Shown: positions 5,986-16,135 of the stretch, piece after piece | Position numbering within the stretch: position 1 is the first letter of the stretch | How the letters are laid out: each line of letters starts with the position of its first letter | Assembly: GCA_038874215.1 (NCBI GenBank) | Contig: JAVZCV010000022.1 | Span: forward strand, 1-20,641 | Length of the DNA: 20,641 nt | Direction of reading: 5' to 3' | Origin: Candidatus Micrarchaeia archaeon | Lineage (GTDB): Archaea > Micrarchaeota > Micrarchaeia > Burarchaeales > JAVZCV01 | Position numbers and translations under genes: made by a program | Notes under the pieces: model-generated | What the model saw: only the letters and a program-made list of their open reading frames with translations | Told to the model about the DNA's origin: nothing | The model's database searches: none

Positions 5986-7017
5986 ATGGGGATTGGCGAA
6001 TCTGTAGATTTGGTGACCAAAATATTCAGTAGGAGTTTTGCCATATACCGAGAAAACAATACAAAATTCCTTATTCCCCTCATAATTGTTTTTATACTTT
6101 CAATCCCATTGCCCAACATATACTTCACCACGATAATAGCCACGGTAAATTGTTTAGGCGCTTTTCCAGTTTTTCTGCCTTATCTATTTGTGGTAGGTAC
6201 CATGGTCACAGTTGTAATTGGTTTGATGGTTCTTCTTCATACTCTGATTCTCAGCATGCTACATGCCATACGGGATCTGATAATGAAGCGCCAGCCTTCG
6301 GTGTGGCATGCACACTTCTGGACAGAGATAGGAAATGGTTTGAGGTGTGTTGTTATTAGAATTGGTTTGTTTATCGTGTTAAGCATACCTTTCATAATTG
6401 CGTTTATTCTTATATTCCTTCGGGCGGTAACATCTTGGGATGGGATTTTTATTCTAGTTGCAACCCTAATCCTATTCATTATTATTATAATCATATTGGT
6501 GAACTTCCTCGCTATTTTCGTTCCGCAGGAGCTTGCACTCGCAAGGTCGGGAATTTTGAAGGCTGTTTCTTCATCAATATCGCTTATTTTTTCAAATTTC
6601 CTTTTGGTTTTTCTATTCGCGCTCGTGTGGGCGATAATTGGAATATTAATGACCATAGGTTCGATGCCAATTTCATGTTGTTGCGTCACTCAGTATATAC
6701 CAAAGGTAGTTGGGATATTCGTGTTGCTTCCTGTAAATCTCATTTCGAATACGATGCTTTGGCTGTTGCTTAAAGGACAAATAAGCCAAGAAGAAATAGT
6801 AGGAAGAAGGTTGGAGGATAAAAAGGAGGTATTAAAAAGTGTTGAAAAGGAAAAAATTCGGGAGATGGATGGGGAAGGTGAGGAAATTGATGATAACGAA
6901 GTTGAGAGCGGGAATGAAGTCGTGAGTGAACACGTTCCCGAATACAGTAGTCCAGAGCCACCCACGGGCATTGGGCACACTGGCATGGGCTTCCTCTACA
7001 GCCAAGAGAACAATTAA
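5986..7017 (+). CDS. Hypothetical multi-pass membrane protein with an acidic C-terminal tail
   Basis: 343-aa ORF with about 6 hydrophobic segments, a SCCC motif and an E/D-rich tail. Its stop overlaps the convergent gene's stop (TTAA 7014-7017). Confidence 0.7.
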   Translation: MGIGESVDLVTKIFSRSFAIYRENNTKFLIPLIIVFILSIPLPNIYFTTIIATVNCLGAFPVFLPYLFVVGTMVTVVIGLMVLLHTLILSMLHAIRDLIMKRQPSVWHAHFWTEIGNGLRCVVIRIGLFIVLSIPFIIAFILIFLRAVTSWDGIFILVATLILFIIIIIILVNFLAIFVPQELALARSGILKAVSSSISLIFSNFLLVFLFALVWAIIGILMTIGSMPISCCCVTQYIPKVVGIFVLLPVNLISNTMLWLLLKGQISQEEIVGRRLEDKKEVLKSVEKEKIREMDGEGEEIDDNEVESGNEVVSEHVPEYSSPEPPTGIGHTGMGFLYSQENN

Positions 7018-9059
7018 TTTGTTTTGGTCTTTTCTTTCGTTGCCCTTATTGCACGTATTCTGGAAAGTATATGCATTGCAAGAGCCTCCGCGTTCTGCTC
7101 ATTCAAACCATCTATGTGAGCATATAAGTTTGAGCGGGATGTTACTGTTGAGATATACATATCCCACAAACCGAAAGCAACGTCAAGAAAGTCGCGGTCT
7201 ATGTAAACACTTTGTATTTTTGAATACGGGATTATGAGCTCTTGCGAGCCGAAAACACCTTTTTTTATTATGAGAACATCCCCATTATCCTCGTAGTAGT
7301 ATCGTCTGAAATATTCAAACTCGTAGAGAAGTGTGAGAACAAAGAGCATGGCGCCGAGTAGAACGCAACCGAAAAAAACAATTAGGAATTTTGGGGCAAG
7401 CACTGAGGTAAAAGATAAAAATCCACATATTACTGCTGGAATCATCATGCTTTGGAGTGTCTTTTTGATGGGTTTCAGTTTCGCAAGCGGAAAGTTATTT
7501 CTGAGCGTCCCCTCCATTTCAAGCGAAATGCCCATTCGTTCCGCAAGTAAAGTGCGTAGTTTCTTTGCGTGTGCGTAGTCTATATCGGGAATTGCTTCGG
7601 TGTTTACGGATGCAGAATAGACTTGTTCTCCATCACCCATTGCTAATTCCTTAGAACCTGTTTCCAAACGTATTGTGGCAAGCCCTGCGATGCTCTGCGG
7701 GAAAGAAACCGTAATCTCTACATCCTGGATTCGCTCGTATGCTATCTGCTTCTTCGCAGTGTTAAGTAGGCCGTACTTTATTATTATGGAGTTATTTGTA
7801 ATCTCATAATCGCACGAAAAAGTTAGGTACATGGCGTTGATGATAAGGGTGGCTGCGCCAAGTGCAATGGCCGCTAAGCCTATAAGGAGAACAATGTTGG
7901 CAAATGGTGGGAAAAAGAATTTTGCTACTGCATAGACTATTGGGAGAAGAAGAAGTGCAAGAATTCCGTAAATGGCAATGGTGTATATGGCGGATTTTAG
8001 GAAATGGTATGGGAATTTCACGGATGTGGCTCCGGATGCTATGTCGGTGGGTCTCTCGGTGCTGGCTACTGATGTTTCGCCATATGGAATGTCAGTTGAA
8101 GTCAATGCATGATCTTTGGCTAAGGAGAGTATTTTTAACCTCATGCTGACGGCGTTGCTCGGTTCAAGCCCGAATAAATGAGCGCCCGAAACTGAAAGGG
8201 TGCTCATCGTTTTTACTCGCAGGTGCTTTATATTCAGGAGTTTGTCTATAAGCGTTTGCACTTCTTCAACGTCCTGTATGCTTTTGTAGATTACAAGTGT
8301 TTCACGGGGTGTTAGAAATCCTCTTTTGATGAATACACCGTCTTCTCTCAGTTCGTATCTGAGCGAAAGAAACTCTTTCCAGATGAGCCAGATGAGAAGT
8401 GGCAGGAGCGGGGGGAATATGATTGCTATGATGAGAAAGGGCATATATGAAACTAACAAACCTAAAAACGCATTTTTTGAGGGCAGAAATAATTCGGGGG
8501 GTTTTTCTTTAGGCTGGATTGCTGTTTCATCAATTTTATGCGGATGCGCAGAATAACCAAAAATTTTCTGGAGGATGAGTGTGCGGATCGCATCCGCAGA
8601 CTCATTGCTTAAACCGTCAATATGGGACATTTTTCCTGAGATTTCTGTCGCAGTTGAAAAATGCAGGTCGTATAAGCCGAAAAGCCTATCAAGTATATCC
8701 TGGTCTTTGTATATATCCTGAATCTTTTTGAGTGGAATTGAAATTTCATTGACGAAAAAAACTCCTTTGCGTATGATGAGCCTATCTTCTATAAGATCAT
8801 AGAAATAGCGAGAGTAGTATTCCCGTTCGTATAGATAGAGAAGAAGAGAAGCAAGCAAAAAAAAGATTGCCAATAAAGGCGCCAAAATAAAGAAGGCAGC
8901 CAATGGAGGAAAATCAAAATAAATGAAAAAAATAAGAACGCCGCTCGCAAGCATTGTAACATATCGGAAAAAGTCGGATAAAGTCTTCTTGGTTATCTTT
9001 TTAGGCAGAAGGGGATATAAGTCCCTCAGCGTCTGCTTTGTAGTTTTATCATTCAACAA
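7014..9059 (-). CDS. YdbT-like membrane protein with four bacterial PH (bPH_2) domains
   Basis: Four repeats of TM hairpin + Y/F-x-(L/I)...IxKG...IPYxKIQxV...FGL...T. TTG start overlaps the upstream ydbS-like stop. Confidence 0.85.
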   Translation of the reverse strand: MLNDKTTKQTLRDLYPLLPKKITKKTLSDFFRYVTMLASGVLIFFIYFDFPPLAAFFILAPLLAIFFLLASLLLYLYEREYYSRYFYDLIEDRLIIRKGVFFVNEISIPLKKIQDIYKDQDILDRLFGLYDLHFSTATEISGKMSHIDGLSNESADAIRTLILQKIFGYSAHPHKIDETAIQPKEKPPELFLPSKNAFLGLLVSYMPFLIIAIIFPPLLPLLIWLIWKEFLSLRYELREDGVFIKRGFLTPRETLVIYKSIQDVEEVQTLIDKLLNIKHLRVKTMSTLSVSGAHLFGLEPSNAVSMRLKILSLAKDHALTSTDIPYGETSVASTERPTDIASGATSVKFPYHFLKSAIYTIAIYGILALLLLPIVYAVAKFFFPPFANIVLLIGLAAIALGAATLIINAMYLTFSCDYEITNNSIIIKYGLLNTAKKQIAYERIQDVEITVSFPQSIAGLATIRLETGSKELAMGDGEQVYSASVNTEAIPDIDYAHAKKLRTLLAERMGISLEMEGTLRNNFPLAKLKPIKKTLQSMMIPAVICGFLSFTSVLAPKFLIVFFGCVLLGAMLFVLTLLYEFEYFRRYYYEDNGDVLIIKKGVFGSQELIIPYSKIQSVYIDRDFLDVAFGLWDMYISTVTSRSNLYAHIDGLNEQNAEALAMHILSRIRAIRATKEKTKTN

Positions 9060-9549
9060 CGTTCTTCGCCTCTTTTACTTTTGAAAGAATAGACTTTTGA
9101 AGTGCTTCGGCATTATCCTTGCTTAAACCGAAGATGATTTCTGAACCACCAGTGGAAGCGGCAGTAGAAACCATGACGCTCCACAGGCCGAATAACTTTG
9201 ACCAAAAGTCTTGGTATACGTTCACATCTTGGATTTTCTCGTACGGCATTAGAGTTATTGTGGTCTTTACAACTCCCTTCTTTACAAAGAGGTAGTGTTC
9301 ATCAACGTTGAATACGAAGGCATCAGTAAAAAGGTAGGCATATAGGAGATTAGCGAGTAGGAGGGCGCTCAGGATGAGGATAGTTAGCAGTATGATCTGA
9401 AGGGTGGGTAGACGGGGTATTATGGGAAGTAGAAACAATGCATAAAACAGTATGAACAGAAGCAGGGAGGATAGATTTGAGAAGGCAATCTGAAAGAAAG
9501 CATGGTCTTCTATAGGTAAAAAAGGATGGCGATTTTCAAGGTTAAACAT
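9049..9549 (-). CDS. YdbS-like membrane protein with one bPH_2 domain
   Basis: Two TM helices followed by FVKKGVVKTTITLMPYEKIQDVNVYQDFWSKLFGLWSVMVSTA...IFGLSKDNAEAL. Confidence 0.85.
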   Translation of the reverse strand: MFNLENRHPFLPIEDHAFFQIAFSNLSSLLLFILFYALFLLPIIPRLPTLQIILLTILILSALLLANLLYAYLFTDAFVFNVDEHYLFVKKGVVKTTITLMPYEKIQDVNVYQDFWSKLFGLWSVMVSTAASTGGSEIIFGLSKDNAEALQKSILSKVKEAKNVVE

Positions 9550-9573
9550 GGATTGTTTTAGGGGAAGTTAAGA

Positions 9574-9581
9574 TATATAAA
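9574..9581 (-). promoter_or_regulatory. TATA box of the ydbS/ydbT-like operon
   Basis: TTTATATA on the minus strand, 25-32 nt upstream of ATG 9549. Confidence 0.65.
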
Positions 9582-9588
9582 TGGGCTT

Positions 9589-10230
9589 TTACGCTTCTCC
9601 TGAAATTTTCTTTGCCCTCTCAATAGCGCGTAGAAGATATTCCGATTTATCAAACTGCGGTGCGGTTTTTAGAAAGGCGGCGACTTCGGACTTTATTTGA
9701 AGGAGGTGCCTTTCTTTTGATGCGTTATCTAGAGCGGTTTGAGCCTGCAGCTTCTGGCCTCCTTCCATGAAGCCCTCTGGAAAGTACCAGTCCTTGAACC
9801 ACGTAAAACCGAGGTTGAATAGCTGGTATCCGAGCCGCGTTATCGGAGCTGGAAAGCCTACCATAAGGCAATACTGCGTCTCACGGTCTTCGTAGTATTC
9901 TACAAAAATGTAGCCTCCTGGTTCAAGATGGCGGGCAATGAGGGCGAGGAGAGCATTTTCAAAAGCGGAGCCGAAAAATGAACTTAGGCTAGGGGAAGGT
10001 TTATTGCTTATGTTGAAAATCTCAGCCCAAGGGCGGTTATATGGCTTTGAGCCGTAATAAAATTTAGCGGAAGCAACGAAGTTTTCTTCGTTTTCATTTT
10101 TTATATAGAGAGCTGCATTGGTTTCTTCGGATAACCTTCCTTTCCAAACTTTTTTGGCATAGAGCGTGGAATTTTCTATGTTGATACCGTTTTTCAGCTC
10201 TACGAGGGCATTTTCAAGCATCGTACACAC
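9589..10230 (-). CDS. DUF1122 family protein
   Basis: Characteristic motifs PWAEIF, IFVEYYEDRET and GFTWFKDWYFPEGFMEGGQKLQA. Start is either GTG 10230 or ATG 10221. Confidence 0.8.
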   Translation of the reverse strand: MCTMLENALVELKNGINIENSTLYAKKVWKGRLSEETNAALYIKNENEENFVASAKFYYGSKPYNRPWAEIFNISNKPSPSLSSFFGSAFENALLALIARHLEPGGYIFVEYYEDRETQYCLMVGFPAPITRLGYQLFNLGFTWFKDWYFPEGFMEGGQKLQAQTALDNASKERHLLQIKSEVAAFLKTAPQFDKSEYLLRAIERAKKISGEA

Positions 10231-10260
10231 GTTTTAGAATATATTTTTGTGAGGTGTTTA

Positions 10261-10677
10261 TTATTCAAGCAGTCTCTTCTCGCCACTTAAATTTTTAATT
10301 TCTGTTATGTCCTGCGTTACCTCAAGACATCCAAGGTATTTGCCAGAGGCGTTTCTGATGGCAAAGTATCGGATATGAACGAATCTGCCCTTTACGTTTA
10401 TCCAGAACTCCGCTACATCACGCTTCCCGTTTCTAAAATCTTCTATTATCTGGTTCACTGCATGCAGACTCTTCTGGGGATGGCATTGCTGAACTCTCCT
10501 GCCAATTGCTTCCTTTGGTCTGACAAAAATACGGCTCTTTGAAAGCTTATTGAAGTACTTAACCACATTGTTAGAATCTACAAAAGATATATCAATGGGT
10601 ACCGCTTCAAGAATCGCCTGAATCTCTTCATGAGAGAGCTTTCCTGCTTCAAATTTTATTTCAGCGTTATTCCCCAT
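10261..10677 (-). CDS. Stand-alone PAS domain protein (PAS_10 / DUF438-associated type with CHP motif)
   Basis: PIDISFVD...KYFN...RIFVR...IGRRVQQCHPQKS...EFWI...IRYFAIRNASGKYLGCLEVTQDIT; GGTGA SD motif in the 12-nt gap after cysK. Confidence 0.85.
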   Translation of the reverse strand: MGNNAEIKFEAGKLSHEEIQAILEAVPIDISFVDSNNVVKYFNKLSKSRIFVRPKEAIGRRVQQCHPQKSLHAVNQIIEDFRNGKRDVAEFWINVKGRFVHIRYFAIRNASGKYLGCLEVTQDITEIKNLSGEKRLLE

Positions 10678-10689
10678 ATTATCACCTAC

Positions 10690-11622
10690 TTATAGGTATG
10701 GCTCAGGATCCGAATCAAAAAGTTTTGTGCTGAGGTATCGCTCGCCCGTATCTGGCACGATTACGACGACACGCTTTCCTTTTCCAAGCCTTCGTGCAAC
10801 CTGCAATGCAGCCCATACATTCGCACCCGCAGATATTCCGCAGAATATTCCCTCCTCACGGGCTAGCCTCTTGCTTGTTTCAAATGCATCCTCATCCTTT
10901 ACAGGTATTATTTCGTCTATCAACTCTCTTCTGAGAATTTCTGGAATGAAACCCGCGCCTATTCCCTGTATCTTATGCGTGCCTGCGCTACCGCCGCTTA
11001 GAACGGGTGATGCCGCAGGCTCAACCGCAATGAATTTTGCATTTGGAAGCTTAGGCTTTAGCGCCTCTGCAACGCCCGTTATTGTGCCGCCCGTGCCCAC
11101 GCCAGCAACAAAGGCATCAAATCTGCCTATCTCACGCTCTATCTCGCGCGCAGTTGTTTCAGCATGCGCCCTAACGTTCGCCTTGTTTTTGAATTGGTTT
11201 GGAATGAAAGCATGGGCATCTTTCCTTGCTATCTCTTCGGCTTTCTCAACAGCGCCATTCATTCCCTTTTCTCCCGGAGTGAGCACTATCTCCGCTCCAA
11301 GAGCTTTCAGTATTTTTCTTCTCTCAATACTCATCGTCTCGGGCATTGTGAGTATGAGTCGGTAGCCTTTCACTGCGCAAACCATTGCGAGCCCAATGCC
11401 AGTATTGCCAGATGTAGGCTCCACTATTATGGTATCCTTTTTTATCATGCCAGCCCTTTCAGCTTCCTCTATCATGTAAAGACACGCCCTATCCTTAATG
11501 GAGGAGCATGGGTTGAAGAACTCAAGTTTAGCAATCACTTCGGCATCGTTTTTACCCACGATTTTATTCAGTCTCACATGGGGAGTATTTCCTATCGTTT
11601 CAAGAATGTTTTTGTAAATCAA
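10690..11622 (-). CDS. cysK: Cysteine synthase A (O-acetylserine sulfhydrylase)
   Basis: Motifs IGNTP, SIKDR (PLP lysine), [37 protein letters not shown] and [13 protein letters not shown] start after GGTGG, overlapping the upstream stop. Confidence 0.95.
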
Positions 11623-12047
11623 TCTACCACCTGCCGATAATTTACATCGGCTCCTTTAATTTGTTTTGAATTCGGCGCTTTATCATCCACAAGTGAAGAG
11701 AGCGCGTTTGAAAGTGCTTTTAGCGCAAGCTCTAAACTGTGCTCTTTTTCTGGTGGCACAAAAACGAGCTCATCAACTATTTTGCTTCTGTCTATTTTTT
11801 TCGCTTCGTCTATGTTTGCGCCTTTCAATAGCGTTGTTAGAACAGACATGGCAACTATCGTGCCAGAGCATGCGCTTGCGCCGAACTTCGCATTCGTTAT
11901 TTTATCGCGTTTTATTTTTAAGTAGAGAGCTACCTTGTCAGAACATTTCCCGCCAGCGTATTCGGCGGTTCCGATTGCGGTTGGGTTTTTTATTTTGCCA
12001 ACGTTGCGTGGTTTGCTCAAATGCATTAGAAACTCTTTGGTTAACAT
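11619..12047 (-). CDS. IscU/NifU-N family scaffold paralog, degenerate (third Cys replaced by Ser)
   Basis: Motifs [17 protein letters not shown] and [11 protein letters not shown] 12047 is preceded by GTGGTG; GTG 12059 is the alternative start. Confidence 0.8.
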
Positions 12048-12065
12048 TGCGGGCACCACTAACCA

Positions 12066-12710
12066 CTATTTTCTTATTGCAACCCTAACTTTTTTTACGC
12101 CAGGAATTTTTCGCACGTGTTCTTCAACTTCCTCGCTTATGTTTTCTGCGAATTTTTCATCTGTGTTGCCGAGGGAGATGTATACCGCCACTGTCCCGTC
12201 TTTGCCTATTTTGACATTTCTGACCATCTTAAGCCGAACTATGCTTATGCCTATCTCGGGGTTTATCACTTTTGCAAGCTCGTTCATCACAGCATCGTGG
12301 GTGAGAGGGGTTTCTTCTTTGCTGATTAATCCCTGTTTCAGCTTGTAGTCCCTTATCGCAGCCTTCAGCGCGTTAACGGCAAGAACAGAACAATGGACTT
12401 TTACGGGTGGGAGACCGCCGAGCTCGCGGGCTGCGGTGAGGTAGTCCATCTTCTCAAGCTCCTCAATAGTTCTGCCTATAGCCTTCTCTGATATTACCGA
12501 AGCTGTGGCTATGTTGGATGCGCAACCATATGATTTGAACTTCATTTTTTTCACTTTGTGGGTTTTTGGGTCAACTTTCAGATAAACCGTAAGCATGTCT
12601 CCGCATAGCGGGCTGCCTTCTGTCGCAACGCCGTCTGGGTTCTTTATCTCGCCAACGTTTCGTGGATGCCTGAAATGCTCAAGGACTTTTTTCGTGTATT
12701 GCATAGCCAT
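12066..12710 (-). CDS. iscU: Fe-S scaffold IscU/MisU fused to a C-terminal DUF59 (SufT/MIP18-like) domain
   Basis: IscU part: YTKKVLEHFRHPRNVG, CGD, GCAS, LPPVKVHC (all three Cys present). C-terminal part: AVMNELAKVINPEIGISIVRLKMVRNV...IPGVKKVRV, which is DUF59-like. Confidence 0.88.
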   Translation of the reverse strand: MAMQYTKKVLEHFRHPRNVGEIKNPDGVATEGSPLCGDMLTVYLKVDPKTHKVKKMKFKSYGCASNIATASVISEKAIGRTIEELEKMDYLTAARELGGLPPVKVHCSVLAVNALKAAIRDYKLKQGLISKEETPLTHDAVMNELAKVINPEIGISIVRLKMVRNVKIGKDGTVAVYISLGNTDEKFAENISEEVEEHVRKIPGVKKVRVAIRK

Positions 12711-12718
12711 TGGACCAC

Positions 12719-13888
12719 CTATTGCGGAACAAATGCGCTTATTTTACGGAGTTTCTCAACAACTGCCCTTGTTTTTTCTATAACATATTCTACTTCTTCC
12801 TTTGTGTTAAACCGCGAGAGGGAGTAGCGTATAGAGCCGTGTGCATCCTCATGCCTGAGTCCTATTGCAGTTAGAATGTGGCTTGGCTGCAGCGCATGGG
12901 AGGAGCATGCGGAACCCGTTGACACACATATGCCGTGCATGCTTAGAGAGAGGACTATGGCTTCGCCCTCTATGTATTTGAATGTTATGTTTGCGTTGTT
13001 TGGAAGGCGCTTGTCCATGTTTTTTCCCTTCGGCCCATTCAGATGCGTATTTTCTATGCTCAGAAGCCCGTCTATTAGCATGTTGCGCAAACTGCGCATG
13101 TGTGCAGTATTTTGTTCGTAATCGCGCATTCCTATCTCAACAGCCTTTGCAAAGCCGACTATCGCTGGAACATTTTCGGTACCGGGCCGTATATCAAACT
13201 CTTGGGGACCGCCATCAAAAACCTTCTCCAGTTTTATGCCCGAGCGGATATAGAGAGCGCCAACACCTTTCGGGCCATGTATTTTGTGTGAGTTGAGGGT
13301 TACCATGTCTATGTTCTGAGCCTTTACATCAAGTTCTGTTTTTGTGAAGCCCTGCGCAGAGTCTGTATGAAAGGGAACGCCTTTTTCCCTGCATATTTTA
13401 CCTATTTCACGCAGGTTTTGTATCGTCCCTATCTCGTGGTTGGCGTGTATTATTGAAACGAGCGCCGTTTTTTCATTTATTGCATTTTCAAGACGAGTGG
13501 TATCTATGAAGCCCTCGCTGTCAACTGGCAGAATGGTAAGCTCAAAGCCCTGCTTTTCAAGCCTTTTCATAGGGTTGAGAGCGGCACTGTGCTCTATCGC
13601 AGATGTAATTAGGTGCGTTTTCCCGTTCTTTTTTCCAGCGAGCGCAATCCCATAAATCGCAATGTTGTTTGCCTCTGTTGCAGAGCCTGTGAATATGATT
13701 TCGCTCGCACTTGCATTAATCGCCTTCGCTATCGTAGTTCGTGCCTTTGTAATCGCGTTTTCTGCCTCCTCGCCGAGGTAATGGAGCGAGGAGGGGTTGC
13801 CATACTTCTTTGTGTAGTAGGGAAGCATTTCCCTTACTACATCAGGGAGGACGCATGTCGTTGCGCTGTTATCCATGTAAACTTTCAC
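12719..13888 (-). CDS. iscS: Cysteine desulfurase, group I (IscS/NifS/MisS)
   Basis: Motifs YMDNSATT, YGNPSSLH, SAIEH, NSHKIHGPKGVG (PLP lysine), RPGTEN and STGSACSS (catalytic Cys). GTG start after AGGTGG. Confidence 0.95.
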   Translation of the reverse strand: MKVYMDNSATTCVLPDVVREMLPYYTKKYGNPSSLHYLGEEAENAITKARTTIAKAINASASEIIFTGSATEANNIAIYGIALAGKKNGKTHLITSAIEHSAALNPMKRLEKQGFELTILPVDSEGFIDTTRLENAINEKTALVSIIHANHEIGTIQNLREIGKICREKGVPFHTDSAQGFTKTELDVKAQNIDMVTLNSHKIHGPKGVGALYIRSGIKLEKVFDGGPQEFDIRPGTENVPAIVGFAKAVEIGMRDYEQNTAHMRSLRNMLIDGLLSIENTHLNGPKGKNMDKRLPNNANITFKYIEGEAIVLSLSMHGICVSTGSACSSHALQPSHILTAIGLRHEDAHGSIRYSLSRFNTKEEVEYVIEKTRAVVEKLRKISAFVPQ

Positions 13889-13907
13889 AAAACCACCTTT
13901 TGCTATG

Positions 13908-14282
13908 CTATAAAGGTGTGGCGTTCTTGCACAAACTGCATGAAGTCATATCGGCAAGTTCCATATGAAAACTGCAAACAGCACCGGAGCTTCTTGCAAG
14001 CATGCATGCCCTGCATATTCCACTTACTACGTGGGTATCGCCTTTTGAAGCATTCCTTGCTATTTCATCGGCAAGTTCTGAGATTGCTTTCTTAGTTTTT
14101 TCATCAAGTTTGAGCCCTCTCCCACGCTTTCCTTTCAGATACTGCGAGACTGCGGCTGGGGTTATTCCAAGAATGCGTGCTATCTGGCTTTTTTTGATGC
14201 CTTTCGTGAAGAGCTCTCTCGTAATTTCTGAGGTTATTGCAGGTAGCAGATACCAGTAGACCATTTGGCATGGGACTTTCAT
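13908..14282 (-). CDS. Archaeal HTH transcriptional regulator (COG2522-like) with a Cys/His-rich C-terminus
   Basis: MKVPCQ...LLPAI...KKSQIARILGITPAAVSQYLKGKRG helix-turn-helix, then C-x2-C-x9-C-x2-H-x8-C-x2-C. Start moved to ATG 14282, which has a TATA box 24-31 nt upstream. Confidence 0.85.
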   Translation of the reverse strand: MKVPCQMVYWYLLPAITSEITRELFTKGIKKSQIARILGITPAAVSQYLKGKRGRGLKLDEKTKKAISELADEIARNASKGDTHVVSGICRACMLARSSGAVCSFHMELADMTSCSLCKNATPL

Positions 14283-14284
14283 AC

Positions 14285-14302
14285 TTTTAACGATTGTTAA
14301 AA
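14285..14302. promoter_or_regulatory. Palindromic operator candidate TTTTAAC-N4-GTTAAAA
   Basis: Perfect 7-bp inverted arms between the TATA box and the regulator's ATG. Confidence 0.55.
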
Positions 14303-14305
14303 AAG

Positions 14306-14313
14306 TATATAAA
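14306..14313 (-). promoter_or_regulatory. TATA box of the regulator-iscS operon
   Basis: TTTATATA on the minus strand, 24-31 nt upstream of ATG 14282. Confidence 0.7.
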
Positions 14314-14320
14314 TTTAGCG

Positions 14321-14350
14321 CTTTGCAAAAGAATACTTTGCAAAAGAATA
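14321..14350. repeat. Perfect 15-bp tandem direct repeat (CTTTGCAAAAGAATA x2)
   Basis: 14321-14335 is identical to 14336-14350; each unit contains the palindrome TTTGCAAA. Confidence 0.9.
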
Positions 14351-14392
14351 ACCTCTTCACTGATAATTATTAAAAGGAGCGGACTATTTTTT

Positions 14393-16135
14393 ATGAGGGA
14401 TCTGACAGTGGCCATCAAAGAAGAAAAACGCGATATGGTTGTGCTTCTGTTGATCGTTCTGGTTAGTGCGGTTGTTTTCTTTTTTGCCCATAATCGTGGT
14501 CTTGACCCGATAGATGACGGCTATCTTGCTTATCCCGCAGTCCGCGTGCTTGCAGGCCAGTTGCCACACGTTGATTTCGTTACGGGTTATACGGGAGGGT
14601 TGTATTTTTTCCATGCTCTTGTATTTTTTCTTTTTGGGGTTGACATAGTAAACCTACGCAGGGTGTTGGTTTTTTTTGGTTGCGGTATAGTCGCTATACT
14701 TTTTTTGCTTACACGGCGGATTGCCAGATTTCCGTTTTCGCTTATCCCAAGTTTCGTATTCTTTATCTACGGCCTCCCTGTCTGCTTCAAGCCGTATCCT
14801 ACATGGTATTCCGTATTTTTTGGGCTTGCAGCCCTACTTTTTCTTTTTAGATTTGGAGAAAAGGGGGAAAGATGGTCCCTCGCACTCTCGGGTATTCTGA
14901 TTGGTTTTTCGTTCCTGTTTAAGCAGACGGTTGGCGTGTATAACATGCTTGCCTCTATGCTATTTCTTTCCACCGCACACGGAACTCCGAGAGTATTTAA
15001 GGCACTGCCGATTGTGTTTTCAACCTTATTGTTTTTTTCAATGCTTCTGCCACAACTTTCCATTGATGTAATTGCCATTTTCCTTCTTCCGCTTATTTTT
15101 CTTTTTTATGTTGCTTGGTTCTATGAAAGCGAGTTTAGATGCACATTGGCAGATTGTTTGTATATTCTTCTTCCATTTGTTGCAACGGTTTCGCTCATGC
15201 CGTTGTATTATATGGCTGTTCGCGGGCCTTCGGCTGTTATTGATTGGCTATACGGTGTATTTGTTTTTCCTGCACGGATTCCGCTTATTGCAACTCCCCC
15301 CCAGTGGCTGGGTATTCTCCCGCTTATTTTCATTGGAACTACTGTGATTATATTCCGGGGTAGATGGGTGTCGGCTCTTTTTTTTCTTCTTCTAATATTG
15401 GGTTTCGCAACGGGCAGGCATTTTTTAGCACTGTATTTCCGAACTGTCGGGGTATGGTTGCCGTCTCTTACGTATTTAGCAGCCTTGCTTATTAGGGGTG
15501 AATGGAGAAAGAATAGATTGCTTCTTGGTCTTATGTGTTTCGGGGTAATGAATCTGTTTGTGCTTTTTCCAACGATAGACTACCCCTATACCGTTTGGTC
15601 AAGCGCACCAGCGCTTCCTGTTTTGGCCTATGTCCTCAACATGGTTTGGGTGCGCAGGCGCTTTTATGCGCTTCCTGCCTTTGCGCTTTTGGGCACTTTT
15701 CTTATATATCATGCAGTGCATGTTTTCATTAGGGCTGATGAGGTTCCGCTTTTGCTTGATGGCGCTAATGTTTATATGGATAAAGAAACTGTGGAAAACC
15801 TGCGTGGCGTTGTGGAATTCCTTAGAGAAAATGCAGATGAGGATGAGATTTTTGTTTTTCCCGCAGACTCAATAGTATATCTCCTTGCAGGTAGGGATAA
15901 TCCTACAAGGTATGATTACCTGCTCTGGGGTTTTGCTGATGAGCGGGGAATTGATGAAATTATAAGAACACTGCAGGAAAAACGGATAAAATGGGTTGTA
16001 GCGGACTTCTCGTATAAAACGAGGTATTACGACTACGTTGGGGAACATGCAGCAGACAAAATGGAGGGATATCTGCGGGTAGAGTATGAAACGGTTGTGA
16101 GAATCGGACCTTACGAGATAATGCGGCTTCGTTGA
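14393..16135 (+). CDS. GT-C superfamily membrane glycosyltransferase (ArnT/PMT-like)
   Basis: First TM is followed by an acidic DDGY loop and PHVDF..GYTGG; FKQTVG motif; many TM helices; soluble C-terminal domain (IFVFP...YLLAGRDNPTRY). Start moved to ATG 14393. Confidence 0.75.
   Translation: MRDLTVAIKEEKRDMVVLLLIVLVSAVVFFFAHNRGLDPIDDGYLAYPAVRVLAGQLPHVDFVTGYTGGLYFFHALVFFLFGVDIVNLRRVLVFFGCGIVAILFLLTRRIARFPFSLIPSFVFFIYGLPVCFKPYPTWYSVFFGLAALLFLFRFGEKGERWSLALSGILIGFSFLFKQTVGVYNMLASMLFLSTAHGTPRVFKALPIVFSTLLFFSMLLPQLSIDVIAIFLLPLIFLFYVAWFYESEFRCTLADCLYILLPFVATVSLMPLYYMAVRGPSAVIDWLYGVFVFPARIPLIATPPQWLGILPLIFIGTTVIIFRGRWVSALFFLLLILGFATGRHFLALYFRTVGVWLPSLTYLAALLIRGEWRKNRLLLGLMCFGVMNLFVLFPTIDYPYTVWSSAPALPVLAYVLNMVWVRRRFYALPAFALLGTFLIYHAVHVFIRADEVPLLLDGANVYMDKETVENLRGVVEFLRENADEDEIFVFPADSIVYLLAGRDNPTRYDYLLWGFADERGIDEIIRTLQEKRIKWVVADFSYKTRYYDYVGEHAADKMEGYLRVEYETVVRIGPYEIMRLR

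Follow-up and report, generated by a model that had tools for sequence, protein, structure and literature searches.

A string of seven genes on the minus strand of a 20,641-nucleotide stretch of archaeal DNA (Candidatus Micrarchaeia archaeon, contig JAVZCV010000022.1; the whole stretch is called the window below) is probably an autorepressed operon for the assembly of iron-sulfur (Fe-S) clusters. As read from its genes and its promoter, this operon would be of the minimal iron-sulfur (MIS) type, would be governed by an archaeal regulator analogous in function to IscR and SufR of bacteria, and would be enlarged here by a gene of cysteine supply. The evidence that carries this proposal is a 14-bp palindrome, a putative operator, located between the TATA box and the start codon of the first gene, which encodes a small cysteine-rich helix-turn-helix (HTH) protein. 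The pairing of this regulator with the palindrome is kept in different archaeal phyla and with different types of Fe-S system. From the gene orders compared, the regulator-operator pair is general and the arrangement of the seven genes is lineage-specific. The window corresponds to contig C22 of a 1.13-Mb assembly (1,134,811 bp, 38 contigs, 91% complete; source genome G000 below), and the host is a tiny hot-spring archaeon of the DPANN group (Micrarchaeota-type) with a genome of roughly 1.1 Mb.

The operon promoter and its putative operator

A consensus TATA box, TTTATATA, was found at positions 14306-14313 of the minus strand, ahead of the regulator gene. The first-pass annotation had placed one TATA box in front of the gene string, and this is indeed the single consensus promoter of the string, no internal consensus TATA being present. 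On the minus strand, TTTATATA occurs only twice between 9000 and 14450 (4 copies in the whole window, both strands taken together). The second of these copies, at 9574-9581, belongs to the next unit, that of the bPH_2 genes, and marks the downstream limit of the operon. At both minus-strand promoters the ATG follows the box after 23-24 nt, a spacing that fits leaderless first genes. In the case of the operon, about 27 nt separate the centre of the TATA box from the A of the regulator ATG (14282) downstream of it, which implies a leaderless first gene. The palindrome TTAAC-N4-GTTAA (14287-14300) is lodged between the box and this leaderless start; it begins 5 nt downstream of the TATA box and spans about -18 to -5 from the inferred transcription start. 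The operon had earlier been called apparently self-regulated, and that suggestion is now backed by a putative operator whose position between TATA box and start codon is conserved.

In the 1,134,811 bp of G000, the exact palindrome is found once, at this promoter, for about 1.8 copies expected from base composition. One-mismatch copies number 17, for about 52 expected, and none of them stands beside a TATA box as judged by eye; being away from TATA boxes, they were not read as further regulon members in G000. The position of the site was compared between genomes. When at most one mismatch was allowed, the operator was present within 80 bp upstream of the regulator gene at 16 of 28 regulator loci (exact at 12, with one mismatch at 4), and in the 14 aligned sites that are legible about 4-8 nt separate it from the TATA box ahead. 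The rest of the roughly 381 kb of regulator loci contains 3 exact sites only, all of them downstream of the TATA box of sulfur genes.

The sites away from the regulator gene outline a predicted regulon. At one locus (L039), a leaderless cysK is preceded by a TATA box and, between the two, by an exact operator. At another (L033), a tandem operator pair follows the TATA box of a sulfate-assimilation operon, which comprises genes for an AprA-like flavoprotein, a ferredoxin, ATP sulfurylase, two NIR_SIR (sulfite-reductase-like) proteins and an FrhB-like protein; this pair is the only occurrence of the motif in the 2.2-Mb genome concerned (G314). The SUF-type genome G316 has 8 exact sites, and 6 of them fall in promoters, namely those of the regulator-suf operon, of three radical-SAM genes, of a BolA-like gene and of one further gene. 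A copy in G317 is flanked by a superoxide dismutase gene and a gene of no assigned function. Three genomes of the same order as the host (G006, G015 and G018) carry a TATA box and a one-mismatch operator about 90-105 nt upstream of their unlinked cysK. In these three genomes it was also observed that some 60 nt between the TATA box/operator and cysK are nearly invariant (L125:1412-1503, L128:1417-1505 and, on the minus strand, L129:2400-2480). This stretch has no Rfam match and a predicted hairpin without covariation among the three sequences, and may be a leader RNA element. Submission of the window and of three cysK loci to Rfam returned one tRNA and nothing else.

The same data bear on the view that the palindrome belongs to a different factor, or to the promoter or initiator itself, and is conserved at these promoters by coincidence, and that the HTH protein regulates something else or nothing at this place. 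The palindrome is AT-rich and is situated where initiator-region sequences lie, and the complex prediction for a regulator homodimer scored 0.24, below the mark of 0.42; these points can be cited for the view. It is nevertheless highly improbable in the light of four observations: whole genomes contain exceedingly few copies of the motif (1 in G000, 2 in G314), it is absent from the window's other leaderless promoter (9574-9549), it co-occurs with the regulator gene across phyla, and relatives in which the regulator is unlinked carry a variant palindrome. This variant, ATAAC-N3-GTTAT, comes right after the iscS TATA box at L065, L068 and L075, and a similar one is located upstream of the regulator gene in L065 and L068.

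Directly upstream of the TATA box, a perfect tandem direct repeat (14321-14350, minus strand) consists of 2 x 15 bp, each copy with the palindrome TTTGCAAA. The repeat falls within a 112-bp divergent region common to the operon and to a membrane-protein gene, whose start is probably near 14395. The 15-mer occurs nowhere else in G000; the 11-mer of the repeat has 3 further copies, none in an obvious promoter. The repeat may be the site of a second factor or a part of the divergent promoter.

The regulator family and its neighbourhoods

The first gene (13908-14282, minus strand) encodes a protein of 124 aa from its ATG, with a weak match to HTH_3 (E 3.7e-4). An N-terminal HTH is followed by a C-terminal helical part with the pairs C90-x2-C93, C103-x2-H106 and C115-x2-C118, and a further cysteine, Cys5, is present near the N-terminus. 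A Cys-rich HTH protein thus heads the isc operon, in the position taken by IscR in bacteria, as had been proposed. A profile built from 34 family members collected 3330 cluster representatives under an E limit of 0.001 and 1629 under the stricter limit of 1e-10, the majority measuring 115-130 aa. The conservation of the candidate ligands was counted on an alignment of 144 members. C103 is present in 92% of them, H106 in 81% (Cys in 7%), C115 in 94% and C118 in 96%. C93 (62%), C90 (29%) and C5 (30%) are variable.

No Rrf2 match for the regulator was obtained in Pfam or NCBIfam, the only hits being weak ones to HTH_3, HTH_5 and similar models, and in the sources searched the family carries no functional name, its labels being "helix-turn-helix domain-containing protein" and "predicted transcriptional regulator". 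The AlphaFold model of the protein (pLDDT 90.1, pTM 0.83) is all-helical, with the HTH at about residues 8-55. Foldseek found no match for this model in the PDB at E <= 0.001. In a wide search with VIA-align the best Z was 7.0, for the HTH part only, and the HTH domains of DeoR/SorC, KorB/ParB and LsrR were found at Z 6.5-7.0. A sequence search of the PDB returned weak XRE/HigA-type HTH matches only (E >= 0.0027). As far as these models go, the lack of a fold match for the C-terminal part does not show a new fold. One family member, P0047 (506 aa), has a regulator domain at residues 8-121 and, behind it, an entire Aminotran_5/IscS domain at residues 130-486, and may be either a true fusion or a merged gene call. 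As a side observation, the same HTH was met in front of about 150 residues devoid of the Cys/His motif in a Crenarchaeota single cell (L046:8001-8735) and in a Nitrososphaerales metagenome-assembled genome (MAG; L047:520-1236).

A protein scan for the regulator gave 24 loci in other genomes, distributed over several archaeal phyla (Hydrothermarchaeota, Micrarchaeota, Pacearchaeota, Woesearchaeota, Iainarchaeota, Thermoproteota, Nitrososphaerales, Nanohaloarchaea and others). The regulator gene is directly followed by iscS at 6 of them, is adjacent to divergent isc genes at 2, heads a complete SUF operon at 2 (L038 and L044) and closes a cysK-ParB_N-regulator operon at 1 (L039). None of these arrangements is seen at the 13 remaining loci, and 9 of these 13 are weak HTH-only matches. 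The SufB gene of one of the regulator-headed SUF operons, in a Woesearchaeota MAG (L038:5062-7665), was seen to carry an intein with a LAGLIDADG domain.

These neighbourhoods and the predicted regulon can also be set against a different signal. The operon could be autorepressed in just the same manner by a regulator that senses the supply of sulfur or cysteine (cysteine, sulfide, persulfide, O-acetylserine or a partner protein, as CysK is to CymR in Bacillus), the Cys/His motif being a structural zinc site or a thiol switch. This explanation would account for the operator sites ahead of cysK in L039, G006, G015 and G018 and for the tandem pair ahead of the sulfate-assimilation operon in L033; the C-x2-H...C-x2-C arrangement is typical of zinc sites too, and the N-terminal Cys and the first C-x2-C are not constant. 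We consider it rather unlikely, in view of the commonest neighbours of the regulator gene, which are Fe-S assembly genes of both the MIS and the SUF type, and of the G316 sites ahead of three radical-SAM clients and of a BolA-like gene, a set more like an IscR-type regulon of Fe-S demand.

A conserved core and the genes added to it

Seven minus-strand open reading frames (ORFs) lie head to tail between 9589 and 14282, and their Pfam and NCBIfam domains are those named by the first-pass annotation for its seven co-oriented genes. Judged from the DNA, the gene string and its single strong promoter are real, and the operon is a predicted one. Behind the regulator gene come, all on the minus strand, iscS (12719-13888; 389 aa, a class-V cysteine desulfurase of the IscS/NifS/MisS type, Aminotran_5, E 5.6e-85), iscU::DUF59 (12066-12710; 214 aa, NifU_N, E 5e-39, and FeS_assembly_P, E 1e-16), iscU*, for a second NifU_N protein (11619-12047; 142 aa, E 2e-23), cysK, for cysteine synthase A (10690-11622; 310 aa, TIGR01139, 449.4 bits for a cut-off of 350.95), a gene for a stand-alone PAS_10 domain protein (10261-10677; 138 aa, E 1.3e-30) and a gene for a DUF1122 protein (9589-10221; 210 aa from ATG, E 1.2e-54).

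The intergenic gaps agree with those given before: 19 nt between the regulator gene and iscS, 8 nt between iscS and iscU::DUF59, 6 nt (GTG start) or 18 nt (ATG start, the value of about 18 reported earlier) ahead of iscU*, -4 nt between iscU* and cysK, 12 nt between cysK and PAS_10, and 30 nt (GTG) or 39 nt (ATG) ahead of DUF1122. The negative value reflects a TTG start of cysK that overlaps the iscU* stop by 4 nt. The GGTG(G/A) Shine-Dalgarno (SD) motifs noticed earlier were located 4-7 nt before the starts of iscS, iscU::DUF59, iscU*, cysK and PAS_10; iscS, which starts at GTG, has GGTGG, and PAS_10 has GGTGA. These motifs are complementary to the 3' tail of G000's own 16S rRNA. The 16S rRNA gene itself (G000:C14:7164-9272; L152) measures 2109 bp for a 1478-position model, so that about 630 bp are inserted, for example as an intron or insertions. 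No run of at least 5 T occurs in any gap between the seven genes. No SD motif was found before DUF1122, and a weak TATA-like element, AAATATAT, lies upstream of it in the PAS_10-DUF1122 gap (10239-10246); for these two reasons the membership of DUF1122 in the unit is uncertain. Past the end of the string, the two bPH_2 membrane-protein genes (166 aa, 9049-9549, and 681 aa, 7014-9059) overlap each other and have their own consensus TATA box and a leaderless start.

Twenty loci around the IscU genes of relatives were compared with the proteins of the window; 3 of the loci are cut inside iscS, leaving 17 that are informative for the regulator. The regulator gene is directly upstream of iscS in 11 of the 17, on the same strand within 4 kb in 2 and convergent downstream in 1, and it was not found at the other 3. 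By contrast, IscU*, cysK, PAS_10 and DUF1122 are beside isc at 0 of the 20 loci, and orthologues of these genes, where present, are located elsewhere. The conserved linkage whose lack had been named beforehand as a refutation is thus present for genes 1-3, which recur together in relatives and in other archaeal phyla, and absent for genes 4-7, and the picture of the seven genes as one conserved, elaborated system was not supported. On these comparisons only regulator-iscS-iscU forms a conserved unit, and genes 4-7 would have been added in this lineage, cysK having moved into the operon. In relatives of family f9, a small AbrB/MazE-like gene was observed directly upstream of iscS (L059:11471-11719, minus strand; L060; L061); by its position it may be a non-orthologous replacement of the HTH/Cys regulator.

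The same counts tell on the more ambitious view that the seven genes have been selected together as a single integrated system, with IscU*, PAS_10 and DUF1122 as dedicated components of its machinery. The tight spacing, the SD motifs, the 4-nt iscU*/cysK overlap, the lack of an internal consensus TATA and of any intergenic T-run, and the solved, uncharacterised structures (3cax and 2qkp) of the PAS_10 family can be cited for such a system. It becomes very improbable once the relatives are considered, where none of the four genes stands beside isc. PAS_10 orthologues were found in 6 relatives (56-59% identity), all away from isc, and four of these relatives have the gene right behind an AMMECR1 gene of the same orientation (L078-L082; G007, G019, G024 and G022); DUF1122 was found in only 6 of 40 relatives, also away from isc; no operator-like site was detected near the relatives' PAS_10 or DUF1122 genes; and IscU* has no close relative in any collection searched. 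As to the proteins themselves, the PAS_10 match reaches 106.6 bits for a cut-off of 22.1, its nearest solved chains, 3cax and 2qkp, both being named "uncharacterized protein", and the DUF1122 match reaches 184.8 bits for a cut-off of 25, its solved relative 2arh being named "hypothetical protein aq_1966". The possible redox sensing by the PAS protein, suggested in the first reading, found no support in these data. In a protein-protein search the DUF1122 protein of the window matches this Aquifex protein with E 9e-37, and the copies of the relatives fit the Pfam profile far worse (best E 9e-21, for 5e-55 with the window copy). A foreign origin of DUF1122 is a possibility, the aq_1966 and Pfam-profile E-values not being directly comparable.

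The case of cysK is different. CysK passes the equivalog model TIGR01139 well above its cut-off, and unlinked orthologues are present in 9 relatives (57-65% identity). The extension of the core by cysteine supply, claimed earlier, is functionally coherent, given the operator on unlinked cysK genes in other archaea; what failed is the conservation of its linkage to isc. A cysE-like gene lies on a different contig of G000.

The core of desulfurase and U-type scaffold (MIS/IscSU type) seen in the first reading is borne out by a catalytic Cys loop and an adjoining scaffold with the full set of ligands. The active-site loop of IscS is STGSACSS. Among the NCBIfam models, NifS (494 bits) and IscS (405 bits) both remain under their equivalog cut-offs, and the IscS subfamily model NF002806 is passed with 310 bits for a cut-off of 304. 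The IscU part of iscU::DUF59 has the canonical Cys, Asp, Cys, LPPVK and His-Cys. Its fusion to DUF59 is real, with FeS_assembly_P at 61.3 bits for a cut-off of 23.5 (residues 139-210), and is common to five relatives (G004, G014, G013, G020 and G017; 57-66% identity), in which the genes after the fusion differ (PAS-UbiA and succinate dehydrogenase genes, or a convergent alanine dehydrogenase). The DUF59 part has no Cys in the window protein and in two fused relatives; canonical DUF59 proteins generally carry a conserved one.

The second, non-canonical scaffold is equally genuine: IscU* scores 83 bits with NifU_N for a cut-off of 22, and its third Cys ligand is replaced by Ser. It keeps Cys35, Asp37, Cys60 and the His, His-Ser standing in place of His-Cys, has a two-residue insertion ahead of the first Cys, aligns with the neighbouring scaffold at 32% identity, and stays below the cut-offs of all equivalog models. 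The best matches in a word-indexed protein search were 2 proteins at 40-41% identity, both with all three Cys, and a metagenome scan yielded 2 short contigs at 33-34% identity. From its ligands, IscU* is read as an auxiliary or regulatory/modulating paralogue and not as a second full scaffold.

No chaperone, ferredoxin or A-type carrier was recognised by Pfam among all ten ORFs of 7014-16135. The only two NifU_N genes of G000 are both within the window, and SufB/D (SUFBD_core), present in 14 of 14 control genomes, was not found in the 91%-complete assembly, in which its absence is not proven. As far as the assembled genome goes, the window carries the sole recognisable Fe-S assembly system of G000, and the host appears to depend on this one operon for all its Fe-S proteins. 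For the source, 3 DNA sequencing runs (one study) were found, and the stretch is present in 1 of them.

Proposed mechanism and comparison with known systems

In the autorepressed operon that we favour, the regulator would bind the palindrome, presumably as a dimer, and, placed at about -18 to -5, would prevent RNA polymerase from reaching the promoter, since archaeal repressors bound just downstream of the TATA box generally act in this way. Polymerase being blocked by the regulator, the output of the operon would limit its own transcription. Less certainly, the C-x2-H...C-x2-C motif would hold an Fe-S cluster received from the operon's own scaffold, and cluster sufficiency would switch the operon off, as with IscR and SufR. 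From the families to which they belong, CysK should make the cysteine that IscS desulfurates, and IscU::DUF59 should build the cluster and perhaps hand it on. With cysK inside the operon, a single operator would serve here what in some relatives is arranged through a separate operator on the unlinked cysK.

Several observations weigh against this reading. The single site of G000, taken alone, is not above chance, so that the whole weight comes from its conserved position across genomes, and the genomes that share the site are related to each other. The motif is missing from 12 of the 28 regulator loci, some of which have other palindromes and some of which are weak partial homologues. Cys5, C90 and C93 are not constant in the family, the C-x2-H...C-x2-C arrangement is as compatible with structural zinc as with an Fe-S cluster, and the regulon predicted elsewhere (cysK and sulfate assimilation) would suit a sensor of cysteine or sulfide equally. 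At the end of the string, DUF1122 lacks an SD motif and has a TATA-like element in front. Finally, genes 4-7 are linked to isc only in G000, which is the sole member of its own family (f1) among the genomes compared, leaving no genome of the same family for comparison.

A wider proposal is advanced tentatively, as a plausible generalisation in which we have less than even confidence. The protein could be the founding member of an archaeal type of master regulator of Fe-S homeostasis, a cluster-sensing repressor of a fold unrelated to IscR and SufR, which would bind TTAAC-N4-GTTAA below the TATA box and thereby couple MIS and SUF systems, cysteine and sulfate assimilation and Fe-S clients (radical-SAM) to cluster supply across DPANN and other phyla. 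If so, the "minimal" MIS system would have had a dedicated feedback regulator all along. The locus and its relatives in any case yield a candidate regulator family (the 1629 representatives given above), a precise 14-bp putative operator and a predicted regulon which spans MIS, SUF, cysK, sulfate assimilation, radical-SAM genes and BolA.

No description of an archaeal regulator of Fe-S assembly, or of this regulator, was found in the accessible literature, subscription journals lying mostly outside the search. Among known sulfur regulators, CymR of B. subtilis is an Rrf2-family repressor of sulfur and cysteine genes that needs CysK as co-repressor. The resemblance lies in cysK, which is inside the putatively regulated operon here, or has the operator in other archaea. 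The archaeal thiamine regulator ThiR, reportedly treated by Rodionov in 2017, is said to be an HTH fused to ThiN. In an Atlas structure search, HTH_3+ThiN proteins, which we take to be of the ThiR type, align on residues 1-121 of the regulator with a TM of 0.81. This alignment suggests that, at the level of the models, the regulator shares an archaeal DNA-binding module with the HTH_3+ThiN proteins. The two differ in that ThiR has a ThiN effector domain, whereas the present family has the Cys/His-motif end and the linkage to Fe-S and sulfur genes; a ThiN search in five genomes gave frames of 454-466 aa only, which are not ThiR-sized.

In a 2026 review (PMC13066941), the MIS system is described as being without additional components, and archaeal MIS and SMS as the least studied systems. 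The pair in the window is of this kind by its class-V desulfurase with a Cys loop, by its U-type scaffold (Cys/Asp/Cys/His-Cys) and by the lack of hscAB, fdx and iscA in the cluster, but the same string adds a regulator of its own, the fusion to DUF59, another scaffold-like protein and cysK. The study of M. acetivorans by Deere (2020; PMC7585200) reports IscU3, a ligand-variant paralogue with the first Cys changed to His, and IscU1, of 24.2 kDa, clustered with four genes of no assigned function. IscU3 and IscU* are both ligand variants, of different kinds (first Cys to His in the former, third to Ser in the latter). The window thus offers two natural scaffold variants for mechanistic work, an IscU joined to a Cys-less DUF59 and an IscU paralogue with Ser as third ligand.

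SufR, from cyanobacteria and actinobacteria, is described, for example in PMC6034842, as a repressor of suf operons with a [4Fe-4S] cluster. The present family likewise heads SUF operons, with the operator on the promoter, in two DPANN-type genomes (L038 and L044). It differs in that the tools used revealed no homology between it and SufR, and in that it serves MIS as well as SUF operons.

The closest parallel is provided by the iscRSUA operon of E. coli, whose first gene encodes IscR, a DNA-binding protein of the Rrf2 family which has its own site on the operon promoter and uses three Cys and one His as ligands. In the window too, a small protein, DNA-binding by its HTH, heads an iscS-iscU operon, has a putative site on its own promoter and has three Cys and one His conserved, and its regulon appears to extend to Fe-S client and trafficking genes, as judged from G316. 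The two differ in protein and in promoter: the regulator of the window combines an XRE/HTH_3-like HTH with a helical Cys/His part and is not of the Rrf2 family, cluster binding is here only presumed from the motif, and the promoter, an archaeal one, has its putative operator lodged between TATA box and leaderless start. Should the regulator sense clusters, it would represent an independent archaeal invention of the logic of IscR and SufR.

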